Part shown: one piece after another, positions 1-41,252 of the stretch
Position numbering within the stretch: the stretch's first letter is position 1
Layout: every line of letters starts with the position of its first letter
IMG/VR virus record: IMGVR_UViG_3300045988_135203
Coordinates: 1-49,698 of that record
Length of the DNA: 49,698 nt
Strand: one strand, 5' to 3'
Source of the DNA: a virus
Position numbers and translations under genes: made by a program
Notes under the pieces: generated by a model
The model's database searches: none
What the model was told of the DNA's origin: nothing
Seen by the model: only the letters and a program-made list of their open reading frames with translations

Positions 1-33
1 TATTTTTCCTCTCTTTCTTAACTTTGTAAAATT

Positions 34-62
34 ATTATAACATTTTAAAAATAAAAAATCAA
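34..62 (-). promoter_or_regulatory. Class A promoter (TTGATT-N17-TATAAT) reading out of the window start
   Basis: Minus strand reads CTTTATTGATTTTTTATTTTTAAAATGTTATAATAATT. Confidence 0.55.
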
Positions 63-185
63 TAAAGTAATTATAACTCGGCGGAAAATATGTCCGTATC
101 CCATATATCAAGTTTATGTTCCATTTTACCTATAACCTATAACCTAAATTTACCTTTCACGCTATAACTACTTTATTGAATTGCG

Positions 186-258
186 TGCGCCAGGCGGGAC
201 TCGAACCCGCGGTATCTTGATTAAAAGTCAAGTGCATTAGCCGCTGTGCTACTGGCGC
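186..258 (-). tRNA. tRNA-Lys (anticodon UUU)
   Basis: Minus-strand cloverleaf: acceptor GCGCCAG/CUGGCGC, T-arm GCGGGTTCGAGTCCCGC, anticodon loop CUUUUAA. Confidence 0.8.
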
Positions 259-329
259 AAATTGCGGATGACGAAACCGCAAGAACCATATGTTGTCATC
301 ATTTGGTATAGCTTATGTTTTAAGCTAAG

Positions 330-402
330 GGTGACTGGAGGGAATTGAACCCCCATATTCTCATCCACAGTGAGAAGTCTTAGCCATTAGACCACAGCCA
401 CC
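330..402 (-). tRNA. tRNA-His (anticodon GUG) with genomically encoded G-1
   Basis: Acceptor GUGGCUG/CAGUCAC, extra 5' G opposite discriminator C (bacterial-type His), D-stem GUCU/AGAC, anticodon loop CUGUGGA, T-loop GGGGGTTCAATTCCCTC. Confidence 0.8.
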
Positions 403-609
403 GTAATAGATTTTGAGGAGTTGCACCTCACTTACTCTCGTAAGAAATAAGAACAATCTAATTTATTGTTTAAAATCTATAGCAGTTCAGTTTCTGCTCT
501 ATATATTCCGTATTGCTTTCCTTCCTTTTATTAATAGTAGTCTAACGAAAAACAGCGTGAATATACTTTTATCATACTCTAACCGGTATTGAATATGAAT
601 ACTGTTAAA

Positions 610-681
610 CGAGCCAACGGGGAATCGAACCCCGACCTCTGGAGAGACAGTCCAGCACACTAGCCATTATGCTACAAGCCC
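610..681 (-). tRNA. tRNA-Asp (anticodon GUC)
   Basis: Anticodon arm CTGGA-CTGTCTC-TCCAG, T-arm CGGGGTTCGATTCCCCG. The acceptor stem has one U-U mismatch and several G-U pairs. Confidence 0.7.
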
Positions 682-792
682 TTAACAAGACAGGTTTAAT
701 TTCGCACTTAAAATCCTCAATTTTACGCTGTATTAGAATTTAAAATTTTGCAGTTCCTGTCTTTAATTTATATATTTATTATATAATATTTT

Positions 793-1098
793 TTAAATAT
801 TATCAATTAAATCTTTTCGTCCTTCCGCAATGTATTCTTGCTCTTGATTTTCAAGTTCATTGATTTTAAGCAAATCAGAATGTTTCCAATTTCTTTTTGC
901 ATAATATCTACTTTTGCGGTTTTTACTTTTTATAGAACACATAGGACATGAGCAATGAATTTTTCCTTTAGAATAACATCCATCATGGTTATAATAATCC
1001 CAACCATATTCCTTTTGACATATTCTTTTCTTTCTGCGGATATGCTTTGCTCGCTGTTTACGATAATAAGCTCTATCTCTATTAGGCAAATACATCAC
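793..1098 (-). CDS. Small basic Cys/His-rich protein (putative zinc-binding)
   Basis: 101-aa ORF with CxC...CxxC cluster and a Lys/Arg-rich composition. Confidence 0.5.
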   Translation of the reverse strand: MMYLPNRDRAYYRKQRAKHIRRKKRICQKEYGWDYYNHDGCYSKGKIHCSCPMCSIKSKNRKSRYYAKRNWKHSDLLKINELENQEQEYIAEGRKDLIDNI

Positions 1099-1203
1099 TC
1101 CTATTCTGTTTATAATTGAGGGGCCTGCTTACCCCCTCATGCAGCAGTTAGTCCCTGCTTGCCGAAGCCAGTTATTTAAGGGAACTGTTAGATTGCACCC
1201 TGA

Positions 1204-1285
1204 TGGGGGAGGTAGGACTCGAACCTACGATGTTTCTTTGTCACGGTTTTACAGACCGCTACCCTCGCCACTAGGTTACTCCCCC
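1204..1285 (-). tRNA. tRNA-Tyr (anticodon GUA), type II with long variable arm
   Basis: Acceptor GGGGGAG/CUCCCCC, anticodon arm GCGGT-CTGTAAA-ACCGT, long variable arm, T-arm GTAGGTTCGAGTCCTAC. Confidence 0.75.
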
Positions 1286-1594
1286 ATAAACATATTAAGT
1301 TGGACAGCTATCCTTTAGAAGACGATGCTTCTGGAGCCTTAATAACACCCCAAGTAGTTTACCATCTCTACAAACTACCAAAGATTAGAACAATTTTCTC
1401 GTTTTGTTCATTAACGTCAGATTTTTCAGCTACGAGGTATCTGAAACATACCTTTCATTAAATTCATCCCAAGTGAAGATTTATGCCTTCAACTTAAAGA
1501 TATAGACTGTGTACTTTAGTCTGCCATTCACTTCACTCTCTGAATGGTCAACCCGTAATCGAGGCTTCGGGCGCTACCCGTGCATGTCGATTAA

Positions 1595-2065: not shown

Positions 2066-2094
2066 ATTATATATTATTTTTTATAAAAAATCAA
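2066..2094 (-). promoter_or_regulatory. Class A promoter upstream of the tRNA cluster
   Basis: Conserved module AAATTGATTTTTTATAAAAAATAATATATAATATATAC. Confidence 0.55.
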
Positions 2095-2242: not shown

Positions 2243-2271
2243 ATTATATATTATTTTTTATAAAAAATCAA
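2243..2271 (-). promoter_or_regulatory. Class A promoter (tandem with 2066-2094)
   Basis: TTGATT-N17-TATAAT with conserved AT-rich spacer. Confidence 0.55.
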
Positions 2272-2897: not shown

Positions 2898-2926
2898 ATT
2901 ATATTATAATTTTTATAAAAAATCAA
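2898..2926 (-). promoter_or_regulatory. Class A promoter for 2590-2865
   Basis: TTGATT-N17-TATAAT. Confidence 0.55.
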
Positions 2927-6345: not shown

Positions 6346-6374
6346 ATTATATAATATTTTTTAAAAATTATCAA
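6346..6374 (-). promoter_or_regulatory. Class A-like promoter for 5932-6288
   Basis: TTGATA-N17-TATAAT. Confidence 0.5.
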
Positions 6375-6586: not shown

Positions 6587-6615
6587 ATTATAAAATATTT
6601 ATAAATAAAAATCAA
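6587..6615 (-). promoter_or_regulatory. Class A promoter for 6400-6525
   Basis: TTGATT-N17-TATAAT. Confidence 0.5.
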
Positions 6616-6778: not shown

Positions 6779-6807
6779 ATTATATATTATTTTTAATAAA
6801 AAATCAA
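6779..6807 (-). promoter_or_regulatory. Class A promoter (transcribes through the T-arm-like element at 6660-6730)
   Basis: AAATTGATTTTTTATTAAAAATAATATATAATATATACATAAGATAAAG, a near-consensus copy. Confidence 0.55.
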
Positions 6808-9483: not shown

Positions 9484-9512
9484 ATTATATATTATTTATA
9501 ATAAAAAATCAA
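9484..9512 (-). promoter_or_regulatory. Class A promoter for 8397-9455
   Basis: TTGATT-N17-TATAAT. Confidence 0.55.
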
Positions 9513-10294: not shown

Positions 10295-10367
10295 AAAAAT
10301 TCTCCTTTTTTATAATAATTATATCAAAATCAAGTTTTTTCGTCAAAAATTAGTATAAGGTCTTTTT

Positions 10368-10902: not shown

Positions 10903-10955
10903 TATTCTTTTCTCCTTTTTGTTTTTATTATATCATTATTTATTTATTTTGTCAA

Positions 10956-28204: not shown

Positions 28205-28206
28205 TT

Positions 28207-28795: not shown

Positions 28796-28806
28796 CAAAA
28801 ATTAAA

Positions 28807-29181: not shown

Positions 29182-29227
29182 TTTTAAGCCCTTTCTTTAA
29201 GTGATAGGGGGCTTTCGCCCCCTTTAA

Positions 29228-29608: not shown

Positions 29609-29662
29609 TTCCTTTCTTAATAAGAGATTTATTATTTGTTTTCTATGTCTTTATTATACCAC

Positions 29663-29690
29663 CTGTAGTCTTGTTTGTCAAGACCTTTTT
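29663..29690 (-). promoter_or_regulatory. Class B promoter for 29228-29608
   Basis: TTGACA-N16-TATAAT. Confidence 0.55.
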
Positions 29691-29799
29691 TATTTTTCTT
29701 TTGGGGGACTTCTCATTGTTTTTCACTTCCTTTCTTTATCTTGTAATAATAATACCATATTTTTTACATTTTGTCAATAGTTTTTTTAAATTTTTTTCT

Positions 29800-30522
29800 T
29801 TATTTTTCCCAGAGTCCAGTTCTCATTTTTTTGTGCTGTCTATAACAATAATGACAGATTTCTTTTTCAATCAGAACGTCCTCAAGTCCAGTGTGTTTTT
29901 CTACAAAAGTATTATCTTTTGTAATAAATCTGTAAAGAATTTCGGCTGTCACTCTTAACTGTCCTCTAGTTGTGAGATAGTTATTTTCTTCACAAAATCT
30001 TCTGTATGATGGCATTTTACACACTACATCACGAGCCATTTTCATAGTATCACAGATTTCCAAACCATAAGGAAAGAAATATCTATACTTTGATTTAGTC
30101 AGCCAACGCTGAGTAGTGTTTAATGTGCCATAGTCAAAACGCATATTGTGAGCGAAAACTTTTGTTACGTTGTAACGTTCACAGCACTCTACAAGTTGTT
30201 TTCTGATATTGTAGAAAGATGTTAAAATTCTTTTACCGCTTTTAATATCTTCCCAATACATCGGAATTTTATTTGCATAGTACGCAGATTTCATAAGCTG
30301 TTTTTCATCAAGAAAAATGTCAGCATTTACGAATGACCATGTTTCAAAAACTTCACCAGTACGCTTGTTAATGACAGCAAAACCGCAATCATAAACCCAC
30401 ATATTTGTTGGAAGTACCTGTTCTAATGTTTTGTCTACTGGACAAGTTTCTGTATCAATTACAATGGAGTAATCCATTCTTCTGTCAATCTTATTAGTGT
30501 TTGGTCTGTTGATAAATTCCAT
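29800..30522 (-). CDS. DEDDh-type 3'-5' exonuclease (DnaQ/RNase T-like)
   Basis: Exo I SIVIDTETCP (DxE), Exo II FAHNMRFDYGTL and Exo III HTGLEDVLIEKEI (H-x4-D) in canonical order. Confidence 0.75.
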   Translation of the reverse strand: MEFINRPNTNKIDRRMDYSIVIDTETCPVDKTLEQVLPTNMWVYDCGFAVINKRTGEVFETWSFVNADIFLDEKQLMKSAYYANKIPMYWEDIKSGKRILTSFYNIRKQLVECCERYNVTKVFAHNMRFDYGTLNTTQRWLTKSKYRYFFPYGLEICDTMKMARDVVCKMPSYRRFCEENNYLTTRGQLRVTAEILYRFITKDNTFVEKHTGLEDVLIEKEICHYCYRQHKKMRTGLWEK

Positions 30523-30555
30523 TTTTGTTTACCTCTCTCTCATCTCTATGTCTTT

Positions 30556-30584
30556 ATTATATCACCAGTGAAGAGGTTTGTCAA
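30556..30584 (-). promoter_or_regulatory. Class B promoter for 29800-30522
   Basis: TTGACA-N17-TGATATAAT. Confidence 0.6.
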
Positions 30585-30756
30585 GAACTTTTTTAACTTT
30601 TTTGTAAGTTTTTTTATTTGCTTTCTTGTCTCTCTCTTCCTTACAAGTATTATAATACCACAAGCCACTAAAGATTGCAAGGATTATTTTTAAAAAAAAT
30701 TGCACAAAATAGATGGTTAATTTTTGTATAAAATGACCAATAGAAAAAGTGTACAA
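30562..30756 (-). CDS. Doubtful small ORF overlapping operator repeats and a promoter
   Basis: 64 aa, hydrophobic N-terminus. It reads through TTGTGCAA repeats and the class B promoter of the next gene. Confidence 0.2.
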   Translation of the reverse strand: MYTFSIGHFIQKLTIYFVQFFLKIILAIFSGLWYYNTCKEERDKKANKKTYKKVKKVLDKPLHW

Positions 30757-30866
30757 AGATTAAGGTGCGGTTTGTCATTTTTTTGGTAATCCTGCACAAA
30801 GATATTTTTCATCACATCGCACAATTTCGGGAATTTTTTTGTTATTATTTTTGTCTATTTTGCCTA

Positions 30867-30895
30867 TTGACAAAAGTTGCTCCCTGTGGTATAAT
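30867..30895 (+). promoter_or_regulatory. Plus-strand promoter of cassette 4
   Basis: TTGACA-N17-TGGTATAAT. Confidence 0.6.
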
Positions 30896-30943
30896 GGAAT
30901 TTCGGGCCTTGGCGTAAGTGAAGCGCTCGCCTGCGGCCCGCCA

Positions 30944-30972
30944 ATTTTATCACCTTTTGGAAAGTTTGTCAA
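30944..30972 (-). promoter_or_regulatory. Minus-strand promoter of cassette 4, face-to-face with 30867-30895
   Basis: TTGACA-N17-TAAAAT about 50 bp from the plus promoter, so the transcripts overlap across the GC hairpin. Confidence 0.5.
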
Positions 30973-30987
30973 GTAATAAAATTGCAC

Positions 30988-31018
30988 AAAAAAGAGGGCT
31001 TAAAGCCCTCTTTATTTT
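30988..31018. terminator. Bidirectional intrinsic terminator in cassette 4
   Basis: AAAAAAGAGGGCTTAAAGCCCTCTTTATTTT. Confidence 0.65.
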
Positions 31019-31206
31019 ACATCTACCATTTTAATTTTGTGAGGCTTGTTTTTTGCCTCCGCATAACTTGTGGTTTCTTTTACAACTTTTTTACTTTCCA
31101 TAATCTGATAAACAACTTTTCTCATTTTTAATACCTCTCTTTTCTTCTTTTCTATGATTTAATTATACTATAGGGCTTGGCTTTTGTCAAGCCCCTTTTT
31201 CATTTT

Positions 31207-31464
31207 TTAATTTTTTTCAATGGTTCTAAAGTCCATGTTTAATGCAAGCAAGACCTCTTCTGGAGTAAGGCTGTGACCCTCACAAATAACGTTTAAATTT
31301 GTTCTGTCAATCAGTCGAATCCAATCTTCTGACCTTTCAACGATGATACAAGGTTCATCAGATAAACAAGGACAATAACATTTACAATCAGCTCTTCCTT
31401 CACCATGCTGTCCTGCATAGCATCCCTCGAGTTCCGCACATTTATAACATTTACTTTCTACCAT
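31207..31464 (-). CDS. Small Cys-rich protein
   Basis: 85 aa with CYKC...CKCYCPC. Confidence 0.5.
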   Translation of the reverse strand: MVESKCYKCAELEGCYAGQHGEGRADCKCYCPCLSDEPCIIVERSEDWIRLIDRTNLNVICEGHSLTPEEVLLALNMDFRTIEKN

Positions 31465-31496
31465 CTTTTATTTCCTCTCTTTCTTTTGATACATTT

Positions 31497-31525
31497 ATTA
31501 TAACACCTTTTGGTTTACTTGTCAA
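31497..31525 (-). promoter_or_regulatory. Class B promoter for 31207-31464
   Basis: TTGACA-N17-TATAAT. Confidence 0.6.
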
Positions 31526-31541
31526 TACTTTTGTTTAAAAA

Positions 31542-31736
31542 TTAAAAATTATTTGAATCCTTTTTAATTTTTGTATCTGCTGTACTATTATTCAAATAGT
31601 TAAACATTGATAAAATTTCCTTTAACTCCTCAATAGAAACAAGGTTATTATTATTAATAATAACAACCCCGTTGGAATCTCCAACACGCAACTCTGCATT
31701 TGCATTTTCCAATTTCATTGTAACTGTTTTCATCAT
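31542..31736 (-). CDS. Small hypothetical protein
   Basis: 64 aa with a class B promoter at 31771-31799. Confidence 0.45.
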   Translation of the reverse strand: MMKTVTMKLENANAELRVGDSNGVVIINNNNLVSIEELKEILSMFNYLNNSTADTKIKKDSNNF

Positions 31737-31770
31737 GCTTTATTCCTCTCTTTCTTTATCTTATACACTT

Positions 31771-31799
31771 ATTATAACAGAAGCTCAAATCTTTGTCAA
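31771..31799 (-). promoter_or_regulatory. Class B promoter for 31542-31736
   Basis: TTGACA-N17-TATAAT. Confidence 0.6.
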
Positions 31800-31816
31800 T
31801 ACCTTTTTTGGAACTC

Positions 31817-32296
31817 TCAGAAAAATTTTCTGAGAGTTCCAATAATGTCGTTTACATCAAAACTGTTTTCGCCCCACTCTTCTCTGTTGCGTTCTTCATC
31901 ATCAAAGAGCCATCCGTCACAATCAACAACTGTACTTTTTGGTGTGCCATAATTTACAATTTTGACTTCATCCCACTCGACACTCGGCAGATGTTTTTCG
32001 AGCCATGCAAGTTTTACACTTGTTACCGCTGTGTTATAAGCTGTCGAACCGCTTTTGCTTAACCAACTCACAATACCGATTCTATAACCGTTTCCCTGTA
32101 ATTTATGTAACATTCTTGCAAATACTGAGAAGTTGAAAAGCGGTCTTGCGATTGCATAAGGCGTGGTATCCTCATTTTCCAGATAGTCTAACCAGTTTTC
32201 TACACCATAGAAGTTAGCTAAAGTACCATCCATATCAAAGTAAATAGTTCCTTTTGTCTCCATCATTTCTTTAATTGTGTTCATCATAATCATCAA
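31817..32296 (-). CDS. HAD-superfamily 5'(3')-deoxyribonucleotidase-like hydrolase, paralog 1
   Basis: HAD motif I FDMDGTLA (DxDGT) and motif IV LFDDE. About 45 percent identical to 36422-36889. Confidence 0.7.
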   Translation of the reverse strand: MMIMMNTIKEMMETKGTIYFDMDGTLANFYGVENWLDYLENEDTTPYAIARPLFNFSVFARMLHKLQGNGYRIGIVSWLSKSGSTAYNTAVTSVKLAWLEKHLPSVEWDEVKIVNYGTPKSTVVDCDGWLFDDEERNREEWGENSFDVNDIIGTLRKFF

Positions 32297-32324
32297 TTCC
32301 TTTCTTTTCCTTTTCTTTAATTAT

Positions 32325-32353
32325 ATTATATACTATCTTTTATAATTTGTCAA
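32325..32353 (-). promoter_or_regulatory. Class B promoter for 31817-32296
   Basis: TTGACA-N17-TATAAT. Confidence 0.55.
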
Positions 32354-32374
32354 CAATTTTTTTTAAATTTTTTC

Positions 32375-32806
32375 TCAGATTTTTGTAATCCCTCTATCTC
32401 TTAAATATTCACAAAAACTGTCGGCATCCAGTAAATCCGCAAGTTCTTTAATTGTAAGATTTTCTTTCTTGTATACACAACGAAATTCAATAGGTTTAAA
32501 GTTTTTTTCTGTAATTCTGTCTCCGCCTGTATAAAAATCATCAACGTTACTAAGTACAACCATTGGTTTTCTAAACAGTGTTTTTTCAAGTCTACCGTTC
32601 ATAAAAAAACCATCTTTTACTAAACTAACAAGCTGAGGAAAATCTCTGATTAAACCTGTCCAGTTTTCAGCATCTTTTGGCTCAATGTATCTTGCGTGTC
32701 GCCAGACGCTAGTATCAACAAATTCTTTCTGTCCCTCAAGTCTGTATTCAAATCTGTAATTATAAACCTCTTTCATTTTTATTTTCCTCTCTTTCATTTG
32801 ATACAT
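32375..32806 (-). CDS. Hypothetical protein
   Basis: 143 aa with a class B promoter at 32809-32837. Confidence 0.55.
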   Translation of the reverse strand: MYQMKERKIKMKEVYNYRFEYRLEGQKEFVDTSVWRHARYIEPKDAENWTGLIRDFPQLVSLVKDGFFMNGRLEKTLFRKPMVVLSNVDDFYTGGDRITEKNFKPIEFRCVYKKENLTIKELADLLDADSFCEYLRDRGITKI

Positions 32807-32808
32807 TT

Positions 32809-32837
32809 ATTATAATCCTCTTTGCTTTATTTGTCAA
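32809..32837 (-). promoter_or_regulatory. Class B promoter for 32375-32806
   Basis: TTGACA-N17-TATAAT. Confidence 0.6.
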
Positions 32838-33087
32838 GTAATATTTTATAAATTTTTTCAACTAATTCTTTCTGCATTTCATACATTTTATCTTCGTTAT
32901 CTTCTTCTAAATAAAGACGAATAATTTCGTATGTGTCATCCATGTATCTGATTTCTACCCAACCTTCATAATAAACAGTAATAACACCTTTAGAAGTCTT
33001 TCTGTTTTTTCTAGTATCTTTAATCTCAACTTTCTTAATGTTCTGTAATCCATAAATTGTATTTTCAACTTTAATATATTTTTCCAT
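32827..33087 (-). CDS. Hypothetical protein
   Basis: 86 aa. Confidence 0.5.
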   Translation of the reverse strand: MEKYIKVENTIYGLQNIKKVEIKDTRKNRKTSKGVITVYYEGWVEIRYMDDTYEIIRLYLEEDNEDKMYEMQKELVEKIYKILLDK

Positions 33088-33116
33088 CTCTTTTTCCTCT
33101 CTCTCTTAACTTGATT

Positions 33117-33145
33117 ATAGTATATCACATGAGATTGAATTTGTC
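33117..33145 (-). promoter_or_regulatory. Class B promoter for 32827-33087
   Basis: TTGACA-N17-TGATATACT. Confidence 0.5.
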
Positions 33146-33154
33146 AACACATTT

Positions 33155-33379
33155 TTAAATTTCTTTTTTTGCTTCTTCTGTTGTTAATCCATAACCTTTC
33201 CAAGGGTCGTACTTTCCAAACAGAATTGTTTCATCAACAGTATCACACATTTTATTATTGACATTGTAATCATAATAAAACCATTTTTTACAATCCCATT
33301 TTAACGGACAGTGGTAGCAAGTTGTTGTAGTTGCAACAGTGTCTATATTAATTGCCATTAACGCTTTTATCTTAATCAT
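33155..33379 (-). CDS. Small Cys-containing hypothetical protein (start trimmed to MIKIKAL)
   Basis: The N-terminal 65 codons of the track ORF are cassette 5 read antisense, with the same MQFYYLT artefact as 30775-30987. Confidence 0.45.
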   Translation of the reverse strand: MIKIKALMAINIDTVATTTTCYHCPLKWDCKKWFYYDYNVNNKMCDTVDETILFGKYDPWKGYGLTTEEAKKEI

Positions 33380-33529
33380 TTTATTTACCCCTCTTCCTTT
33401 ATCTTGATTATAGTATAGCATGGTTACGGGAAAATGTCTATAGGCAAATTGCACAAAGATTTCGCTGTAAAATAGTTGAATTTCTCTGTTTTGCACAAAA
33501 ACCGGCCGCAGCGCTTGTCGCCGGCCGGC

Positions 33530-33558
33530 CATTTTATCACACTTCTTCATTTCTGTCA
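33530..33558 (-). promoter_or_regulatory. Minus-strand promoter of cassette 5
   Basis: TTGACA-N17-TGATAAAAT. Its leader contains the GC hairpin and TTGTGCAA repeats and runs into 33155-33379. Confidence 0.5.
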
Positions 33559-33573
33559 AGTAGTAAAATTGCA

Positions 33574-33608
33574 CAAAAAAAGAGCTGAAATTTCAGCTCT
33601 TTTTTTTT
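33574..33608. terminator. Bidirectional intrinsic terminator in cassette 5
   Basis: AAAAAAAGAGCTGAAATTTCAGCTCTTTTTTTTT. Confidence 0.65.
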
Positions 33609-33792
33609 ACTGTTCCTTTGTTACACTTTTAACAAGTGCCCGCAATTCCGCAACCCCAAAGCAGTCCATGTATTCGCCCATTGCCTTTTTTAATTCTGAG
33701 GTTCTTTTGGCTCTGAGCTGTCCTATCATCCATTCATATTCTTCTTTGTTTAATGTGTAAGGACAACAACCATTTTCTTTTAATTCATACAT
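33607..33792 (-). CDS. Small Cys-containing hypothetical protein
   Basis: 61 aa with a class B promoter at 33827-33855. Confidence 0.5.
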   Translation of the reverse strand: MYELKENGCCPYTLNKEEYEWMIGQLRAKRTSELKKAMGEYMDCFGVAELRALVKSVTKEQ

Positions 33793-33826
33793 TTTTTATT
33801 CCTCTCTTTCTTTATCTTATGTACTT

Positions 33827-33855
33827 ATTATACCAGAGGTTTGGGCTTTTGTCAA
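33827..33855 (-). promoter_or_regulatory. Class B promoter for 33607-33792
   Basis: TTGACA-N17-TATAAT. Confidence 0.6.
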
Positions 33856-34103
33856 GCCCTTTCCTCACTTTTATTCATGTTTGTTACAAACTCTGTACTA
33901 AATTTATCATAGACTTCTGGACTTACTTTGTCTGCGATAAATTCCATTACTGTACAAATACCATACATGAAACTATTGTTTCCATGCTTTGCATCATAGC
34001 AACCTTTGAATAACTTCGGTCCTTTTGATACCATGTCATCATAAACCAGATGATAAGCGGCTTTTAAAGTTTTTTCATATTCCTGTTCTGTCATAATTAT
34101 CAA
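33852..34103 (-). CDS. Hypothetical protein
   Basis: 83 aa with a promoter at 34133-34161. Confidence 0.5.
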   Translation of the reverse strand: MIIMTEQEYEKTLKAAYHLVYDDMVSKGPKLFKGCYDAKHGNNSFMYGICTVMEFIADKVSPEVYDKFSTEFVTNMNKSEERA

Positions 34104-34132
34104 TTCCTTTCTTTATCTCTTTTGTTGATTAT

Positions 34133-34161
34133 AGTATACCATAGGTTTAGAAGTTTGTCAA
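34133..34161 (-). promoter_or_regulatory. Class B promoter for 33852-34103
   Basis: TTGACA-N17-TATACT. Confidence 0.5.
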
Positions 34162-34192
34162 GACTTTTTATTTTTTTCTTTGATTTATTTTC

Positions 34193-34315
34193 TATGATAT
34201 AATTAAGTTGTCAAGAGGTTTTTTAAGGTATTTTTTGTGACGAGTGCCGATTTTACTTCACACAATTATGCGTCGTGGAGAGGTTGGTTGCTGTATCTCC
34301 TCTTGACACCTTAAT
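34193..34315. repeat. ~28-bp inverted repeat separated by ~60 bp, downstream of a class B promoter
   Basis: CCTCTTGACA(A/C)CTTAATTATATCATAG is present in both orientations at 34193-34224 and 34285-34312. Confidence 0.55.
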
Positions 34316-34342
34316 TATATCATAGGGGGTTGAGTTTGTCAA
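34314..34342 (-). promoter_or_regulatory. Class B promoter firing into the inverted-repeat region 34193-34315
   Basis: TTGACA-N17-TATAAT with hairpin-embedded -35. No ORF lies between it and the next promoter. Confidence 0.5.
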
Positions 34343-34358
34343 CCCCATTTTTTATTTT

Positions 34359-34706
34359 TTATCTTTCTTTCAGACTATGCATTACGATTGTATGACCGCA
34401 TTTATCACAAGTGTAATAGTATTCATCATCACCACTTCTATGATGTACTGTACTTGTAAACTTGTAAGGCTCATTACATTCTGTACAATATCCGTTGTTC
34501 CATGCTTCATCATCACCTTTACTCTGTAATGTAAATAATCCACCTATACCACATCCAATAGCAACCGCAAGTATAATTCCAATTATCCATTTTACTATTG
34601 GTTTATTGTTTTCAGCAATAGTATTTACAATACACATTGCCATGAAACCACCAACTATTAAACTCATAAATATTGATACTGAAATAAATTCTGCCATGTA
34701 ACTCAT
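34359..34706 (-). CDS. Membrane protein with C-terminal zinc ribbon
   Basis: 115 aa with two TM helices followed by CTEC...CDKCGH. Confidence 0.55.
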   Translation of the reverse strand: MSYMAEFISVSIFMSLIVGGFMAMCIVNTIAENNKPIVKWIIGIILAVAIGCGIGGLFTLQSKGDDEAWNNGYCTECNEPYKFTSTVHHRSGDDEYYYTCDKCGHTIVMHSLKER

Positions 34707-34737
34707 TTTATTTACCTCTCTTTCTTTAACTGTCTTT

Positions 34738-34766
34738 ATTATAGCACAAGGGGTTTAGTTTGTCAA
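34738..34766 (-). promoter_or_regulatory. Class B promoter for 34359-34706
   Basis: TTGACA-N17-TGCTATAAT. Confidence 0.6.
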
Positions 34767-34770
34767 CCCT

Positions 34771-35067
34771 TTATTTAAAAAATTCTTTCGCTGTTTCTCT
34801 ATATCTTTTTGGAACACCTGTGATAAATTTTTCTTTATCTTCTTCTGATAATGTTCTTCTTAATTGTTTTGGTGTTACTGAAAAAGGATTTAGATGATAT
34901 TTAATCATTAGTGGAAATACTTTAATAAATGTAAGTGTTTTAATCATGGTTATAATCTTGCCAAGGATTTCAATAGGCATCCAGAACCATTCCCACTCAT
35001 TGTAATAACTTAAATAACTCAGTGTGTACATTGCGATAATAATTGTTACTACTAATAATGTTTTCAT
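34771..35067 (-). CDS. Small membrane protein
   Basis: 98 aa with an N-terminal TM. Confidence 0.5.
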   Translation of the reverse strand: MKTLLVVTIIIAMYTLSYLSYYNEWEWFWMPIEILGKIITMIKTLTFIKVFPLMIKYHLNPFSVTPKQLRRTLSEEDKEKFITGVPKRYRETAKEFFK

Positions 35068-35098
35068 TTTATTTACCTCTCTCTCTTAACTTGATTAT

Positions 35099-35127
35099 AG
35101 TATATCACAAGGGGTTGAATTTGTCAA
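35099..35127 (-). promoter_or_regulatory. Class B promoter for 34771-35067, -35 in a perfect 8-bp hairpin
   Basis: GGGGTTGACAAATTCAACCCC then TGTGATATACT. Confidence 0.55.
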
Positions 35128-35147
35128 CCCCTTTTTGAATTTTTTTT
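35111..35147. terminator. Hairpin plus T-run containing the -35 of a class B promoter
   Basis: GGGGTTGAATTTGTCAACCCC followed by TTTTTGAATTTTTTTT on the plus strand, with an A-rich stretch before it. Confidence 0.5.
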
Positions 35148-35292
35148 AAATTAATTGTAACAGATAACTTCCATCATTCTGTGCAAGTATTCTGACAATT
35201 TCCTCTCGATTCTGCGAGAGAATTTCCCCTGTTGAGCAATCCACAAGTGCGGTTTCATAACCTTTTTCAATGTAAAGTCCTAAAATCATCAT
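35146..35292 (-). CDS. Small hypothetical protein (48 aa), absent from the ORF track
   Basis: ORF filling the gap between neighbours, with a GAGG RBS. Confidence 0.35.
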   Translation of the reverse strand: MMILGLYIEKGYETALVDCSTGEILSQNREEIVRILAQNDGSYLLQLI

Positions 35293-35308
35293 AAAAAACA
35301 CCTCTTTC

Positions 35309-35464
35309 TTAAATAAGTTTTAATAAGTTACCGTTTTTATCAAAACAAAAGCCTACAGTTTCATCTGATACAAGTTCAAAATAGTCTGAGTCATCTACTG
35401 GAATCCATATTCCAGCCTTTCTAAAGATTTCTAATAATTTTTCTTTATCAGTTTTTTTGACCAT
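35309..35464 (-). CDS. Small hypothetical protein (51 aa), absent from the ORF track
   Basis: ATG after GAGAGG, with a class B promoter at 35491-35519. Confidence 0.4.
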   Translation of the reverse strand: MVKKTDKEKLLEIFRKAGIWIPVDDSDYFELVSDETVGFCFDKNGNLLKLI

Positions 35465-35490
35465 CTCTTTTACCTCTCTTTCTAATACCT

Positions 35491-35519
35491 ATTATACCAG
35501 TCCTTGACTCATTTGTCAA
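35491..35519 (-). promoter_or_regulatory. Class B promoter for 35309-35464
   Basis: TTGACA-N17-TATAAT. Confidence 0.55.
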
Positions 35520-35793
35520 GGACTATTTTTTTAATTTCATCATCATAGATGTTATTATCAGTGTGCATTGTATCCATGATAAGCTTTACATTATCACCAG
35601 TTTCAAGGTTTGTACCATCCTCAAAATAATAATCCCAGTCATTTCCAGTAGAATCTGTGAAAGTTACAAGGTTGTCATTCTGTACTTTTACAACCTCTGC
35701 GGTTCTGGTGTATGTACTTTCATAAGTTCCTACACCACCAATTACTGCGATACCTAACATAACTGCTAATACTGTTTTAATCATCCTCATCAT
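35509..35793 (-). CDS. Secreted or membrane-anchored small protein (signal peptide)
   Basis: Hydrophobic N-terminus MIKTVLAVMLGIAVIGGVGT. Confidence 0.55.
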   Translation of the reverse strand: MMRMIKTVLAVMLGIAVIGGVGTYESTYTRTAEVVKVQNDNLVTFTDSTGNDWDYYFEDGTNLETGDNVKLIMDTMHTDNNIYDDEIKKIVLDK

Positions 35794-35808
35794 TTCCTCT
35801 CTTTCATT

Positions 35809-35837
35809 TGATACATTAAGTATAACATCAAGCTATT
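35809..35837 (-). promoter_or_regulatory. Class B promoter for 35509-35793
   Basis: TTGACA-N17-TATACT. Confidence 0.5.
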
Positions 35838-35905
35838 TATTTGTCAATATACAAAATAACCAATTTCGGGATGCAAATTATTTAATATTTTGTACAATTT
35901 TCCTA

Positions 35906-35935
35906 TTGACAAACTGCGGCGACCTGTGGTATAAT
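35906..35935 (+). promoter_or_regulatory. Plus-strand promoter of cassette 6, followed after about 10 nt by a terminator
   Basis: TTGACA-N18-TGGTATAAT. Confidence 0.55.
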
Positions 35936-35949
35936 TAGTCAGGGCAGCA

Positions 35950-35978
35950 GGCGACCATAGCGGTCGCCCCTTTCTTTT
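35950..35978 (+). terminator. Terminator of the cassette 6 mini-transcript
   Basis: GGCGACCATAGCGGTCGCC then CCTTTCTTTT. Confidence 0.5.
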
Positions 35979-36123
35979 AGTATTCTACGATTGTATACAT
36001 CAACCGCATTAACTGTTCATTAGTAAACTCTCCTGACTCACAATCCTCACAGAACATAACTGTTAATGGACTCTCAAAGCCTAACTGTTTAATTACGTTA
36101 TCCATCATTTCTTTTACTGTCAT
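35977..36123 (-). CDS. Small hypothetical protein (48 aa), absent from the ORF track
   Basis: ATG after a GGAGG RBS, with a class B promoter at 36156-36184. Confidence 0.4.
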   Translation of the reverse strand: MTVKEMMDNVIKQLGFESPLTVMFCEDCESGEFTNEQLMRLMYTIVEY

Positions 36124-36155
36124 CTTTAATGACCTCCTTCTCTTAACTTGATTAT

Positions 36156-36184
36156 AGTATACTACAATCAGATTGATTTGTCAA
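36156..36184 (-). promoter_or_regulatory. Class B promoter for 35977-36123
   Basis: TTGACA-N17-TATACT. Confidence 0.5.
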
Positions 36185-36190
36185 TAGGAA

Positions 36191-36215
36191 AATAAGAATA
36201 TTTTAAAAATATTCT
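36191..36215. repeat. 23-bp perfect palindrome
   Basis: AAGAATATTTTAAAAATATTCTT in the ~250-bp noncoding stretch that also holds CTTTACTACT twice and the hairpin GAGAGAGAACGTTTGTTCTCTCTC. Confidence 0.5.
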
Positions 36216-36421
36216 TTGCTTTCTCACATTAATCCTTTACTACTAGATTGCTGTACTGTTGCGTTACTTTAATGCTTTACTACTTTAGTGTAATGAAGTC
36301 TCGCTACTCATTGCCTTTGTTATTCTATTAACACTCCTGTTAATTTTTTAACAATCTGCGTCCCACGAACCGCAGAACATAGATAGAGAGAGAACGTTTG
36401 TTCTCTCTCCTCTTTATCCTT

Positions 36422-36889
36422 TTACACATGATACTGCATCAACTCTTTAAGCACATCCATCATAACTATAGCGTCAACACTTGCACCTTGCCACTCTTCT
36501 CTATTCCTTGCCTCATCATCGAATAGTATTCCACCGCAAGGCACTGCCGCACGTTTGTTCTGTCCATACTCTGTTACAATAATCTCATTCCAATTAACAC
36601 TAGGAAGATGCTTCTTTAGCCATGTTCTCTTGGCTTCTTCTATTGCTTGCACATAATCAAGTGTTGCGTTCTTACTTGCCCATGAGATAACACCTAACTT
36701 ATAACCTCTCCTCTGTAGTGCATTGACGCGCCTTGCAAATAGACTCATGGTAACAAGCGGTCTTGCTATCTCATAAGGCACTGTGCTACCATGTACCAGA
36801 TAGTCAAGCCATCCTTCTACACTGTAAAGGTCTGCAATAGTTCCATCTAAGTCGAACCATAACCATTTATTATCTAACATACTAATCAC
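36422..36889 (-). CDS. HAD-superfamily 5'(3')-deoxyribonucleotidase-like hydrolase, paralog 2
   Basis: FDLDGTIA and LFDDEARNREEW, collinear with 31817-32296. Confidence 0.7.
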   Translation of the reverse strand: MISMLDNKWLWFDLDGTIADLYSVEGWLDYLVHGSTVPYEIARPLVTMSLFARRVNALQRRGYKLGVISWASKNATLDYVQAIEEAKRTWLKKHLPSVNWNEIIVTEYGQNKRAAVPCGGILFDDEARNREEWQGASVDAIVMMDVLKELMQYHV

Positions 36890-36921
36890 TCTTTCTTTCT
36901 TTTATCTTTATCTTTATATTT

Positions 36922-36950
36922 ATTATAACACCTTTGTGCTTGCTTGTCAA
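36922..36950 (-). promoter_or_regulatory. Class B promoter for 36422-36889
   Basis: TTGACA-N17-TGTTATAAT. Confidence 0.6.
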
Positions 36951-37022
36951 GACCTTTCTTTGTGTCTTTCTCTCTGCCTTGTCTTGCCTCTTGGCTCAAG
37001 GGTTAGCCTAGGCTAACCCGCT

Positions 37023-37142
37023 CTATACCAGATAAGTATCAATAATAGAGCCACCTACTCTCTTGGCAGTTAGTTCAGCCAAACTCTTGCTACTTGTTAA
37101 CAAAACGAATTTTCCCTCTTTATCAATAACCTCATACTTCAT
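37023..37142 (-). CDS. Small hypothetical protein (39 aa), absent from the ORF track
   Basis: ATG after GAGAGG, with a class B promoter at 37178-37206. Confidence 0.35.
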   Translation of the reverse strand: MKYEVIDKEGKFVLLTSSKSLAELTAKRVGGSIIDTYLV

Positions 37143-37177
37143 GTCTTTGTTCCTCTCTTTCTCTCTTTCTTTATACA

Positions 37178-37206
37178 TAGTATAGCACATAGGTAGTCAC
37201 TTGTCA
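37178..37206 (-). promoter_or_regulatory. Class B promoter for 37023-37142
   Basis: TTGACA-N17-TATACT. Confidence 0.5.
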
Positions 37207-37306
37207 AGAGGTTTTAATAAATTTTCTTTGTTAATTTCTTAACAAACGAACTACTAGGAATCGCAGTTTTCGTCATTAACTTACACTCCATGAGAACATC
37301 AAGTCT

Positions 37307-39105: not shown

Positions 39106-39401
39106 CTTATAATTACCGTTCCATGCTTTCCTTCTTTTCTCAACCTCTCCAAAACTGGATGGCAGGAATTTTTTTCATTCATAAATACAATAGCAAAATC
39201 AAGTTCTTTAATATAATCATTAAATGCGCCAAAAAAATATTTTTTGCCGGAACCATTATTTTCTGCCCATTTATCTCCCAAAGAATTGGGAGAACACACT
39301 ATATTAAATAAATATGTCCCCTTTATTTCAATAAGCTCATTTAATCTTTTGTCCAAAAGGTCATAATCATCAAGTGTGCCTCCAATTATTCCTACATTCA
39401 T
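39102..39401 (-). CDS. SLOG/DUF2493-like Rossmann-fold protein (YpsA/DprA-like)
   Basis: VGIIGGT ... LGDKWAENNG ... ELDFAIVFMNE ... GTVII pattern typical of DUF2493 SLOG domains. Confidence 0.5.
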   Translation of the reverse strand: MNVGIIGGTLDDYDLLDKRLNELIEIKGTYLFNIVCSPNSLGDKWAENNGSGKKYFFGAFNDYIKELDFAIVFMNEKNSCHPVLERLRKEGKHGTVIIR

Positions 39402-40267
39402 GCGATTGGCTCAATAAAAATTAACTTATCAATATAATCTCTATCCGCACCTTTGAAAATAGGAATTTTATAATCTATTTTCCATTTGCGGCGAACAATT
39501 ATTCTTTCACCAATTTGTTCTCCAAAATAAACATTTGGCTCTTTAATTGTTTCTTTAATTGTTTCTTTTTCTTCTATTTTGATACATGCGGTACCGCGTT
39601 TACATGGAATTGTAAAGTCATTCCAATTAATTCCACATTGAGTCATTAGCATATCTTGAATATCATTACAAGTTTTATCTTTAAGTTTGGCATGTGAAAA
39701 ACAAGCTTGTCCCACCATTTGAATACTATTCCGCGTTGCATCCAATTGCCGCCAATAAATAAGATTAGTTACTTCTTCTTTTGGAATATTAAAACATCTT
39801 GCGTCAAACATTGCTCCTTTTTCTGCGGCATTTACATATCTTTCAATAAGCCTTTTATTTCCCTCTATAAGAGGGTCATGAGTCGAATTATATTTAATTA
39901 TATTCTCAGAAAAATATTTATTAAAAGCCATTGTTGCCATAGAAGCTGATACGGAAGCCATTTTCTGAACCTCATAATTAAACCAAGCCTCTGAGGTTAA
40001 CTTTTGGTAATCAGTTAAAATTAAAGTAATTTCATCTGATTGAGTATATCCAAAAATACAACCCTGAATATTTTCACAAAGATACTTCATTGTCCTTTGC
40101 ATCGTATCCATTAATACAGGATCAAATGGTTTCTGAAAGCCTCGTGTAAAAGTATGAAAAGCTTTTCCATCAAGCCTAATAGCTACTGGCATGCGGCGAA
40201 GTAATTGTGTTTTTGCGGGATTTTCATAAAAATCTTTCATTCTTGCGGCAAGTTCACTATTATCCAT
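39398..40267 (-). CDS. Thg1-like protein (tRNA-His guanylyltransferase family 3'-5' nucleotidyltransferase)
   Basis: VAIRLDGKAFHTFT, YTQSDEITLIL and IYWRQLDATRNSI match the Thg1/TLP core motifs (RLDG-x-FH-x-F, YGQSDE, WRQ-D). Confidence 0.75.
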   Translation of the reverse strand: MDNSELAARMKDFYENPAKTQLLRRMPVAIRLDGKAFHTFTRGFQKPFDPVLMDTMQRTMKYLCENIQGCIFGYTQSDEITLILTDYQKLTSEAWFNYEVQKMASVSASMATMAFNKYFSENIIKYNSTHDPLIEGNKRLIERYVNAAEKGAMFDARCFNIPKEEVTNLIYWRQLDATRNSIQMVGQACFSHAKLKDKTCNDIQDMLMTQCGINWNDFTIPCKRGTACIKIEEKETIKETIKEPNVYFGEQIGERIIVRRKWKIDYKIPIFKGADRDYIDKLIFIEPIA

Positions 40268-40301
40268 TTTTCTTCCTTTTCTTTATTTATTTTATATATA
40301 T

Positions 40302-40330
40302 ATTATAATTTAATTTTTAAATTTTGTCCA
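40302..40330 (-). promoter_or_regulatory. Promoter for the Thg1-like gene
   Basis: TGGACA-N17-TATAAT in a class A-like AT-rich context. Confidence 0.45.
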
Positions 40331-40632
40331 TTCTGATCTTTTACTGTGACCTCTGTATGGTCTTCACTAATATTTGTTTCTTTTAAAAACCAATGCCATA
40401 CATAAGGTTCTTCAACTGTGGTTCCAATATATTGAGTATTTTGTAACACTTTTTCGGGAATCGGTTGTCCTGTTCCAATAGGATTTACAAAAAAACTTCT
40501 AATAGGAGCTGCAGTATCAGTTAAAGCCCAAAGATAAGTGCGGCCATTTATTTCTTTTACATTAAGAAATTTAACAAGTGGTAAATTAAGCACTCCAATA
40601 TCATTTAAACAATATTTAAGAATTCTTTTCAT
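40303..40632 (-). CDS. Hypothetical protein
   Basis: 109-aa ORF. Confidence 0.5.
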   Translation of the reverse strand: MKRILKYCLNDIGVLNLPLVKFLNVKEINGRTYLWALTDTAAPIRSFFVNPIGTGQPIPEKVLQNTQYIGTTVEEPYVWHWFLKETNISEDHTEVTVKDQNGQNLKIKL

Positions 40633-40882
40633 TAAGTTTATCCTCTAATTTTTCTGGAATCTCTGCGCCAATCTCTTCAAGAATTGATTTTGCGGCTAAG
40701 AATTTTGGATCTACTCCATCGGCAATAGATAAAGCAATATACATTTTACCATCTAAATCAAATGTAAAAAATTCAAGTTCTTCATTATCTCGCATAAACA
40801 TTCTATCTCTTAATCCTTTTGGAAGAGTAATTCTTCCTAATGAGTCTAATCTTCTTCTTGCGTTTTCTGGTCTTAATATCAT
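40616..40882 (-). CDS. AbrB/MazE/SpoVT-type swapped-hairpin DNA-binding regulator
   Basis: N-terminal LGRITLPKGLRDRM matches the AbrB-family looped-hinge motif, with an acidic tail. Confidence 0.6.
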   Translation of the reverse strand: MILRPENARRRLDSLGRITLPKGLRDRMFMRDNEELEFFTFDLDGKMYIALSIADGVDPKFLAAKSILEEIGAEIPEKLEDKLNEKNS

Positions 40883-40894
40883 TATTTTATCTCC

Positions 40895-41128
40895 TTAATT
40901 AAATTTAATATTATCATCATCGCTACCATCCCAATTACTACCCATTAAAATATCTAATATCCATGTAGCAATATTAGAGATGAAAAATGCGGGTGCCGTT
41001 ATTAAAAATATTATGAGTACAATTAACATTTCTACCCAGCCTATTTGATACAGCGAATCCGCAGATTGTATAGCCAAAGATAAAAACATAAGCAACCATA
41101 AAATATAAATAACTATTACTAAAGTCAT
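40895..41128 (-). CDS. Small membrane protein (2 TM helices)
   Basis: 77 aa, hydrophobic, with a promoter at 41167-41195. Confidence 0.5.
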   Translation of the reverse strand: MTLVIVIYILWLLMFLSLAIQSADSLYQIGWVEMLIVLIIFLITAPAFFISNIATWILDILMGSNWDGSDDDNIKFN

Positions 41129-41166
41129 ATTTGTATCCTCTTTATTTTTACCTTTAATTTACTAAT

Positions 41167-41195
41167 ATAATATCAAAAAATTTTAATGTTGTCAA
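41167..41195 (-). promoter_or_regulatory. Leftward promoter of the divergent pair at the early/late junction
   Basis: TTGACA-N17-TATTAT. Confidence 0.5.
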
Positions 41196-41200
41196 AGAAT

Positions 41201-41229
41201 TTGACTTTGTCCAAGATTTGCGATATAAT
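41201..41229 (+). promoter_or_regulatory. Rightward promoter for the structural/packaging module
   Basis: TTGACT-N17-TATAAT, then a GGAGG RBS and the ATG at 41253. Confidence 0.55.
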
Positions 41230-41252
41230 GTTTTTAATACTGGAGGTAAACT

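Follow-up and report, generated by a model that had tools for sequence, protein, structure and literature searches.

The window analysed here is the whole 49,698-nt stretch of viral DNA catalogued as IMG/VR record IMGVR_UViG_3300045988_135203, in which genes run leftward over 1–41.2 kb and rightward past 41.25 kb. It carries about 60 promoters of the sigmaA (sigma70) type, which fall into two families, termed class A (the TTGATT family) and class B (the TTGACA family); the term class C is used for promoters of short hairpin RNAs. The best explanation of the window is that it represents the leftward-transcribed early arm of an uncultured phage of about 180 kb that infects gut Bacillota and has an SPbeta-like structural module. 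The assignment of both families to the sigma70/sigmaA type, which had been proposed in a first-pass annotation of the same DNA, is supported by their hexamers, 17-bp spacing, extended −10 elements, orientation, distance to the Shine-Dalgarno sequence and start codon, and conservation.

The sequence TTGACA-N15-19-TATAAT is found at 30 exact sites, against 0.18 expected from shuffled sequences, with spacers of 17 or 18 nt. All but one of these sites (29 of 30) lie within 22,891–37,471, the remaining one being at 10,927, where the first-pass annotation had placed about 30 genes with such promoters within 21–37 kb; the pattern typed there, CTTGACAAA-N14-GTGn, implies a wrong spacing, and TTGACA-N17 is the correct one. 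With a 17-bp spacer and one mismatch permitted in the −10 element, sites of the class B type number 37 in 22–38 kb. The sequence TTGATT-N15-19-TATAAT has 13 exact occurrences (0.44 expected), all of them on the minus strand and within 34–22,591. A weight matrix for class A, trained on 12 exact TTGATT sites, returns 16 strong sites at 34–20,793 with scores of 31–67, the best score in shuffled sequence being 0.8, as well as a weak hybrid at 40,302 in which the −35 element is TGGACA. The expectation of about 16 class A promoters plus one near 40.3 kb was thus borne out. Perfect TTGAnn-N17-TATAAT sites are bimodal, since TTGATT is present in 13 of the 18 with an A/T spacer and TTGACA in 24 of the 26 with a mixed one. 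The features that co-vary between the families are positions 5–6 of the −35 element, the composition of the spacer, and the TGn motif, and the motif search of the window confirmed that two sharply separated families exist.

The spacing of the hexamers, N17 in class A and N17 or N18 in class B, is within the 16–18 bp usual for sigma70/sigmaA promoters, and the sites are co-oriented with the genes that follow them at leader distance. Every class A site is on the coding strand, as are about 33 of class B; the −10 element ends 23–57 nt away from a start codon that has a strong Shine-Dalgarno sequence ahead of it, or else the site is located upstream of a tRNA gene. Promoters of the class B array are positioned 26–38 nt ahead of the Shine-Dalgarno-led starts of small open reading frames (ORFs). 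The roughly 35 genes of the early region, which have a median length of 94 residues and nearly all belong to no known family, have about 33 promoters on the coding strand. The layout matches that of a phage early (host-takeover) array, in which each small ORFan has a consensus promoter and the set is clustered in a single arm of the genome. The suggestion that each small early gene has a promoter of its own agrees well with these counts.

The two families differ in several parts of their anatomy. The −35 element is TTGATT followed by a T-run in class A and TTGACA followed by AA in class B, the G+C content of the spacer is 1% in the former and 39% in the latter, and TG at −15/−14 is present in 0 of 15 class A sites versus 30 of 37 class B sites. 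Among the A/T-spacer sites of the window, TGn is found only at 34–62, at 22563, and at the class-B-like site 10927. An A-rich tract at −40 to −60 precedes class B and is missing from class A, so the hallmarks of a strong Firmicutes-style promoter (TRTGn with an A-rich tract) are present in class B and not in class A of this phage. The spacer contains 14.7 bits of information in class A and 7.5 bits in class B. A leader with a ribosome-binding site is conserved past the −10 element in both (16.5 bits in class A, 11.3 bits in class B), and that part of the module, previously considered to be peculiar to class A, is therefore common to the two classes.

The description of class A as a nearly invariant 45-nt module needs to be relaxed. 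Individual sites agree with the quoted consensus at 35–47 of 48 positions and their mean pairwise identity is 76%. The spacers are likewise 76% identical, compared with 50% expected from an A/T-only composition, and the point at which the T-run gives way to the A-run moves by 1–2 nt from site to site in relatives, which argues for a constraint that is compositional or structural and not imposed base by base. As judged from these alignments, the extra conservation of class A is largely compositional, with no fixed 45-nt sequence. The sequence preceding the −35 element tends to be AAATCTTAA, which together with TTGATTT makes an imperfect dyad. Class B spacers are essentially unrelated, with a mutual identity of 41%. 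Only four small families of paralogues, 23–71% identical, are present among the 70 genes of the window. The scarcity of paralogues and the unrelated class B spacers indicate that recent copying of cassettes is not the cause of promoter uniformity, and duplication of promoter-gene cassettes was ruled out as its source.

The class A sites, all on the minus strand, are as follows. The leftmost one, TTGATT-N17-TGTTATAAT at 34..62, drives a gene of a 302-residue sigma factor that starts just to the left of position 1, and an orthologous site is present in the related loci L013 and L142. A TTGATA variant at 778..806 (score 33.9) is located upstream of tRNA-Asp (610–681). Two copies of an exact 29-mer follow, one at 2066..2094, upstream of tRNA-Met (1901–1971), and the other at 2243..2271, with a non-coding leader that continues into the 2066 promoter. 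The site at 2898..2926 is 32 nt ahead of a gene encoding 91 residues (2590–2865), and a second TTGATA variant, at 6346..6374, precedes the genes 5932–6288 and 5084–5920. Two more sites are at 6587..6615 and 6779..6807, the latter being the best match to the quoted 45-nt consensus (47/48), with no ORF directly after it. The site at 9484..9512 lies 28 nt before the gene of an M20/M28-like peptidase (8397–9455), the operon continuing with 7121–8410. The sites at 12755..12783 and 13224..13252 precede, respectively, a gene encoding 584 residues (10956–12710) and the small genes 12992–13192 and 12790–12978. A TTTATT variant at 14270..14298, abutted upstream by a hairpin, is found before the gene 13444–14244, and the site at 14909..14937 before 14602–14874 and 14319–14600. 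The promoter at 18847..18875 heads an operon of about 4 kb (18809 to about 15018), with a NUDIX hydrolase gene (17312–17971) among its members; a search for a second promoter-like site between 15.0 and 18.8 kb found none. The block is completed by the sites at 20238..20266, before the gene 19631–20194, and at 20765..20793, which has TATTAT as its −10 element, precedes 20280–20678, and is the first of the class A block. Outside of it, the hybrid at 40302..40330 (−; score 21.5) combines TGGACA with a spacer and leader of the class A type and precedes a Thg1-like gene (39398–40267).

The class B array at 23380..37207 (−) consists of about 30 promoters comprising an A-rich tract, TTGACAAA, N17, and (TGn)TATAAT or TATACT. 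Their −10 elements end, all on the minus strand, at 23380, 23869, 24329, 24430, 25095, 26091, 26345, 26452, 26784, 27331, 27821, 28207, 28511, 29653, 29749, 30556, 31162, 31497, 31771, 32325, 32809, 33119, 33827, 34133, 34314, 34738, 35099, 35491, 35819, 36156, 36922, and 37179. The proposed separation of the two zones holds for most of the sites, with a few exceptions: 26,784 and 29,749 are hybrids, and two class-B-like promoters reside inside the class A zone, namely 10318..10346 (−; TTGACG, TGATATAAT), before the gene 9509–10294, and 10927..10955 (−; TTGACA, TGATATAAT), before 10468–10902. At the right end of the arm, two promoters stand back to back. TTGACA-N17-TATTAT at 41167..41195 (−) serves the leftward genes from 40895–41128 onward, and a host-type TTGACT-N17-TATAAT at 41201..41229 (+) serves the gene of a 352-residue helix-turn-helix/zinc-ribbon protein (41,253–42,311), the head of the rightward packaging and structural genes. 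The latter type of promoter is kept across the phage family as TTGACw-N17-(TGn)TATAAT.

The two promoter families are also present in related phage contigs from metagenomes, which number in the hundreds. The exact 29-mer of 2066..2094 is present in 32 IMG/VR stretches, corresponding to about 24 contigs of 32–197 kb, where it precedes at least eight different genes, and the same loci contain 84 more non-identical TTGAT[TA]-N17-TATAAT sites with the A/T-only spacer and the leader kept. Class B arrays, defined by perfect TTGACA-N17-TATAAT and divergent from the structural operon, are found in most of 80 fetched loci (60 or more), including relatives in which the 352-residue protein is 68–76% identical and the G+C content is 30–41%. 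The persistence of two families despite such divergence in protein sequence and base composition points to purifying selection acting on each type.

In L013 and L142, the ORF behind the orthologue of the site 34–62 encodes 302 residues that match the Pfam families Sigma70 r1.2, r2, r3, and r4. The sigma gene of the same phage, on contig k99_17744 (L142:12866-13774), starts one base past the left end of the window. The best relatives of known structure are SigA of C. difficile (7l7b, E 3e-94), a SigA of 368 residues (8x6f), and B. subtilis SigA (7ckq), and the phage protein is about 55% identical to bacterial RpoD/SigA. Conserved segments include DLIQEGN, WWVKQAITRAI, PAHIVE, and ERIRQIEAKAL, and regions 1.2–4 of a group 1 sigma factor are all present with their core-binding and DNA-reading motifs. 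Region 1.1 (PF03979), found in most bacterial homologues (about 350–430 residues), is absent from the phage clade (P0121–P0126, P0128, and P0129, with 270–338 residues); P0127 (368 residues, 84% identical) is the one close clade member listed with PF03979. With region 1.1 missing, the phage sigma is primary-like and not a full member of group 1. No close homologue was found among 50,697 isolate phage records, the nearest matches being unannotated fragments of unclear origin with 49–53% identity. Among 80 fetched loci with sigma homologues, about 30 are large phage contigs of low G+C content that belong to the same broad family; the others look bacterial, with the helix FDVTRERIRQI, high G+C, and no such promoters. 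The phages of the family have sigmas of 283–306 residues, nearly all of them encoded behind a promoter with an A/T spacer.

Some association is seen between the presence of this sigma and the TTGATT element. In 21 sigma-bearing relatives, TTGATT is used at 140 of 182 promoters with A/T spacers (77%). Enterococcus phage EF1 (142 kb) has no homologue of the sigma even at E = 10, and its −35 hexamers are mixed (TTGAAA 12, TTGACT 11, TTGATT 8, TTGACA 7, TTGAAT 5), nearly all of them with TGn. This comparison is correlative, uses one negative-control genome, and is suggestive only. An additional factor acting on class A, as had been postulated, thus has a candidate in the phage sigma encoded behind a class A promoter, and the attempt to explain its action at the level of a single residue failed. 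R584 of E. coli is the residue that reads the fifth base of TTGACA, at position −31, and R584A alters the base preferred there (PMC2613000, PMC12262734). It is at this position that class A and class B differ, and a lysine replaces R584 in 11 of 11 close phage sigmas versus 0 of 109 bacterial RpoD proteins. Phages with sigmas that keep the arginine (L152-154, L163-167, L177, L183, and L213) nonetheless have 6–12 TTGATT promoters per 17 kb, so the substitution does not co-vary with the base at −35 position 5, and R584K was ruled out as the cause of TTGATT use. Another candidate, bootstrapping of the sigma through TGn on its own promoter, is true of the lineage of the window and of 11 of 16 lineages examined, and does not discriminate where all class A promoters carry TGn.

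The nature of the phage is clarified by the genes to the right of the arm. A nucleotide search of 50,697 phage records returned no close relative, the sole match being 72% within the terminase gene. The portal and the 352-residue protein are related to those of large siphoviruses of Bacillota, the named relatives at the protein level being Enterococcus phages EF1, H1, and VRE9, Brevibacillus phage Sundance, and Geobacillus phage E3, as well as Bacillus Tsamsa-like phages, C. difficile phiCD211, and gut phage phAss-1. Relatives that have been isolated have Bacillus, Enterococcus, Clostridioides, Staphylococcus, and Lactococcus as their hosts, and a Clostridia host was predicted for phAss-1 by its authors (PMC10607447). 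Rightward genes beyond 42.3 kb match the Pfam families YonG_N, YonD_N, and YonB known from SPbeta, and the portal and terminase match PHROGs, which together identify a packaging and head module like that of SPbeta. The same phage is on record in several ENA assemblies as contigs of 172–182 kb; the 352-residue protein has relatives at 476 loci of IMG/VR, and the public assembly index lists the copy of this phage in 96 of its blocks. Of the binned related contigs, 17 of 22 are labelled as Bacillota, Mollicutes, or Tenericutes, and the few outliers (Bacteroidales, Treponema, and Methanobrevibacter) are implausible, bin labels being indicative only. A Firmicutes-type host, for which no genus can be named, is favoured by the Bacillota relatives and also by the Shine-Dalgarno leaders, the extended −10 elements, and the SigA-like phage sigma; a host of Bacillota type, in line with the first-pass annotation, remains the best reading of these sequences.

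Class B genes are ORFans, apart from two proteins resembling 5'-3' deoxyribonucleotidases that PHROGs files under host takeover. Searches of PHROG, Pfam, and NCBIfam assigned functions to class A genes of the window only for the peptidase, the NUDIX hydrolase, and Thg1; in relatives, the class A gene products that could be assigned comprise a phosphatase, a protein that binds RNA, and one carrying the shoulder domain of the major vault protein. An exact-protein look-up of the ORF at 2274–2621 gave no match, its start codon being probably wrong.

A scheme that would account for these features can be outlined. The A-rich UP-like tract, TTGACAAA, the free 17-bp spacer, TGn, and TATAAT of class B would maximise its use by the unmodified host sigmaA holoenzyme, and class B promoters, one for each small ORFan, may thus be immediate-early promoters of the host-takeover type. 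Class A promoters head short operons with tRNAs, enzymes, and the phage's own 302-residue sigma, and would form a second regulon that starts more weakly and lasts longer. As the phage sigma builds up and competes for core RNA polymerase, the output of class A would rise, resulting in a feed-forward hand-over from the host sigma to its phage copy. Host sigmaA must itself be capable of firing class A, given that the sigma gene stands behind a promoter of this class, one with TGn. A second regulon is the most economical reading, as class A has a distinct and conserved form, occupies a block of its own, and is tied to the sigma. The two families would accordingly correspond to temporal classes, in an order suggested by promoter quality and gene content, and the phage sigma would probably prefer class A. 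We tentatively regard class A as delayed or sustained in its expression and boosted by the phage sigma, giving this view slightly less than an even chance of being right. The broader proposal, that a widespread family of gut phages of about 180 kb re-programmes host RNA polymerase with a trimmed housekeeping sigma, devoid of region 1.1, which preferentially reads a dialect of the housekeeping promoter (TTGATT with a T-run, A/T-only spacer, and TATAAT) under positive feedback, is possible but less likely than not.

Several observations weigh against a sigma-boosted second regulon. The timing is deduced solely from promoter quality and gene content, and the functional matches among class A genes are too few for assigning a temporal class. 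TTGATT combined with a perfect −10 element makes a respectable promoter for host sigmaA, and the two classes could fire together. The association of the sigma with TTGATT is confounded by shared ancestry, with EF1 as the single negative-control genome, and class A without TGn is peculiar to the lineage of the window, TGn being present at 114 of 182 sites in the pooled relatives. The rightward structural operon starts with a host-type promoter and not with class A.

The main rival, possible if not particularly likely, is that host sigmaA alone reads both families throughout infection. The constraints on class A would then reflect the site of a phage or host regulator, be it an activator or a repressor, or else a demand on DNA structure, for instance bending or ease of melting, by which strength or timing is set, and the phage sigma would serve other promoters, such as late ones beyond the window. 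The sigma gene's own need of a class A promoter, which the host has to recognise, fits such an arrangement, as does the equality of the −10- and TG-reading residues of the phage sigma with those of SigA (WWVKQAITRAI, PAHIVE); the R584 position alternates between R and K with promoters unchanged, and the operon of the 352-residue protein has a host-type promoter throughout the family. The imperfect dyad formed at class A by AAATCTTAA and TTGATTT could be the site of a regulator, and the promoter-proximal SPBRE boxes of SPbeta are known to be repressor sites (PMC10516654). On the other hand, no candidate regulator has been identified, a compositional spacer with a shifting junction fits base-specific binding poorly, and the homogeneous TTGATT of sigma-bearing lineages versus the mixed hexamers of EF1 is not explained by the host sigma acting alone.

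A less probable alternative to the second regulon is that the families are two inherited dialects, brought in with modules of different ancestry and made uniform by recombination, both of them firing together from the start of infection and differing neither in function nor in timing. In favour of such an origin, each family occupies a contiguous block, with 2 kb of non-coding DNA between the two, hybrids are found at 26,784, 29,749, and 40,302, and two class-B-like sites are located within the class A block; a single early class that covers 81% of the genes, with no middle class, is known in Kayvirus (PMC7698491). The persistence of both families in relatives with 68–76% identity and 30–41% G+C speaks against this origin, as do the paucity of paralogous genes in the window and the unconstrained spacers of class B, which indicate that uniformity is not being maintained by gene conversion. 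Finally, the T-run of class A (TTGATTTTTTAT) might also serve the preceding gene as the U-tract of its terminator, in a compact terminator-promoter junction, as a GC hairpin abuts some of the sites (14270, for example, and ggatttgcgcaaaccgcaaatcc-TTTT-TTGATT in relatives). Among 111 unique sites of the class A type, however, only 17 have a hairpin ending within 4 nt of the −35 element, many of these being orthologues of one site, and this account is very improbable and largely ruled out as a general explanation.

The SPO1 phage of Bacillus has a host-takeover module, reportedly described by Stewart et al. in 1998, and its middle and late promoters have unrelated hexamers that are read by gp28 and then by gp33/34. 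The early arrays of SPO1 and Kayvirus are similar to class B, with dozens of near-consensus promoters (TTGACW, 17-bp spacer, TRTGn, TATAnT, and an UP-like tract), each placed ahead of a single small gene of unknown function, or a few such genes, and read by unmodified host polymerase. In Kayvirus vB_SauM-515A1, 58 early promoters of sigma70 consensus have TRTGN and TTGACW, and a second class, devoid of a −35 element, was ascribed to a divergent phage sigma (PMC7698491). The phage of the window differs from both in having a second, equally sigma70-like family in a block of its own. With the sigma cascade of SPO1 (PMC13401047), the phage of the window has in common a phage-encoded protein of the sigma-70 family, a host-readable promoter for it, and a possible hand-over of the core enzyme. 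The phage sigma described here is, in contrast, close to primary RpoD/SigA (about 55% identity) and not a divergent phage-specific sigma, and its candidate targets deviate from the host consensus at two positions of the −35 element. In T4, the switch from early to middle transcription proceeds by sigma appropriation through AsiA and MotA, so that one polymerase serves successive promoter classes. The families of the window resemble those of T4 in sharing the −10 element and differing around −35/−30 (for −35 recognition, see PMC2613000), although class A retains the TTGA core at the canonical 17-bp spacing, and no homologue of AsiA or MotA was found.

Dense arrays of consensus early promoters are textbook features of large phages of Firmicutes. 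What sets this phage apart is a second, equally sigma70-like family, kept distinct across a large and abundant family of uncultured gut phages and tied to a sigma of the primary type. Should the scheme be true, it would represent a minimal way of dividing one polymerase between two regulons, with a temporal switch achieved by near-identical sigma/promoter pairs and not by a divergent phage sigma, and it could provide orthogonal sigma/promoter pairs for synthetic biology of Gram-positive bacteria. Even without the link to the sigma, the two weight matrices help to annotate transcription units and likely early genes, and the signals of the sigmaA type favour a Bacillota host for a group of phages with unknown hosts.

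A further set of promoters is dispersed through the early region. Class C is built of a TTTTTGTGCAA box located 17 nt upstream of TTGACAAA, followed by GTGnTATAAT; its transcript opens with GGAAATTYCG, forms a GC-rich hairpin, and contains no ORF. Nine such promoters are found at about seven sites 2.5–3 kb apart, five of the nine being antisense to genes, and the module is repeated in more than 40 related loci. The stem is kept by changes on both sides, with 82.7% of cells paired versus 63% after shuffling, a value reached by 0 of 500 shuffles, and pairing falls to 30–54% if the partners are slid. The promoter at 22891..22920 (−) is followed by a GC-rich hairpin RNA with no ORF. That at 25443..25471 (+), with the upstream box TTTGTGCAA, is antisense to genes and has its hairpin at about 25480–25507, and that at 28638..28667 (+), also antisense, has the hairpin CGGGCC...GGCCCG. 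A convergent pair, 30867–30895 (+) and 30944–30972 (−), face each other across one 48-bp segment of GC hairpin. The promoter at 33531..33559 (−), with TAAAAT as its −10 element, leads to the hairpin CCGGCCGG...CGGCCGG, and the unit at 35906..35968 (+; promoter 35906–35935) comprises a hairpin RNA of about 40 nt and a plus-strand terminator at 35950–35968. The last two promoters form a divergent pair, 37307–37335 (−) and 37442–37471 (+), with several TTGTGCAA boxes in between. Searched against Rfam with gathering and E-value thresholds, the window yielded only seven tRNAs, and the hairpin RNAs remained unmatched.

The −35 hexamers of many class B promoters are themselves located within hairpins such as GGGGTTGACAAAnTCAACCCC. 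Such a hairpin, with the upstream A-tract, has the form of an intrinsic terminator for transcription of the opposite strand. Within 22.5–38 kb there are 14 terminators on the plus strand (2.5 expected), five of them containing the −35 hexamer, and three on the coding strand; the claim that many early genes have their own terminators is therefore true for few of them. Hairpins that enclose a class B −35 element are present on the plus strand at 27357–27384, 29668–29684, 31173–31194, 34326–34346, 35109–35133, and 35499–35524, and the same arrangement of −35 element and antisense terminator is seen in EF1. Plausibly, the antisense terminators serve the class C RNAs.

In SPbeta, SPBRE operator boxes at about ten promoters are bound by the repressor MrpR (PMC10516654). 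The phage of the window shares with SPbeta the Yon structural genes and a box, TTTTGTGCAA, that is repeated close to promoters at about seven intergenic sites, 17 nt ahead of the −35 element; the likeness to SPBRE is one of arrangement. Unlike those of SPbeta, the boxes of the window accompany promoters of short GC-hairpin RNAs, often in convergent pairs. Neither a homologue of MrpR nor a lysogeny module was seen in the window, although no search aimed at them was made.

The non-coding gap of 2 kb between the class A and class B blocks contains repeats and a long palindrome (20826–20993, 21045–21164, and 21464–21553), comprising four tandem units of 42 bp, a direct repeat of 66 bp, and a palindrome with arms of 45 nt. 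These repeats could be an origin or a regulatory region. The stretch at 22600–22890, which is also non-coding, is GC-rich, locally exceeding 55% G+C in a genome of 32%, and has hairpins such as the inverted repeat at 22627–22679; it is situated downstream of the promoters at 22891 and 22563.

Some features of the gene complement deserve a brief mention. The seven tRNA genes (Lys, His, Asp, Tyr, Trp, Met, and Ile-TAT) are located at 185–4211, and the gene at 39398–40267 (−) encodes a Thg1-like tRNA-His guanylyltransferase (Pfam Thg1, E 1.5e-30), the homologue of which in the relative L024 stands behind a class A promoter. The presence of both tRNA-His and the Thg1-like gene suggests that the phage matures its own tRNA-His. 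In the group of phAss-1 (OQ749652), TAG is recoded in late genes (PMC10607447); read with the standard code, the packaging and head genes of the window (41253–49698) are uninterrupted, and none of its seven tRNAs is a suppressor. The large terminase, intact in the window with 576 residues (43568–45298), is split in the otherwise near-identical genomes L114 and L116, over the equivalent stretch 12316–15083, into parts of 205 and 370 residues by a gene of an HNH/NUMOD homing endonuclease. Finally, in IMG/VR contig 3300014039_000059 (L020:834-3329, −), a class A promoter precedes the gene of an 831-residue protein with shoulder and repeat domains of the major vault protein (Pfam MVP_shoulder, E 1e-21), which is unusual in a phage.

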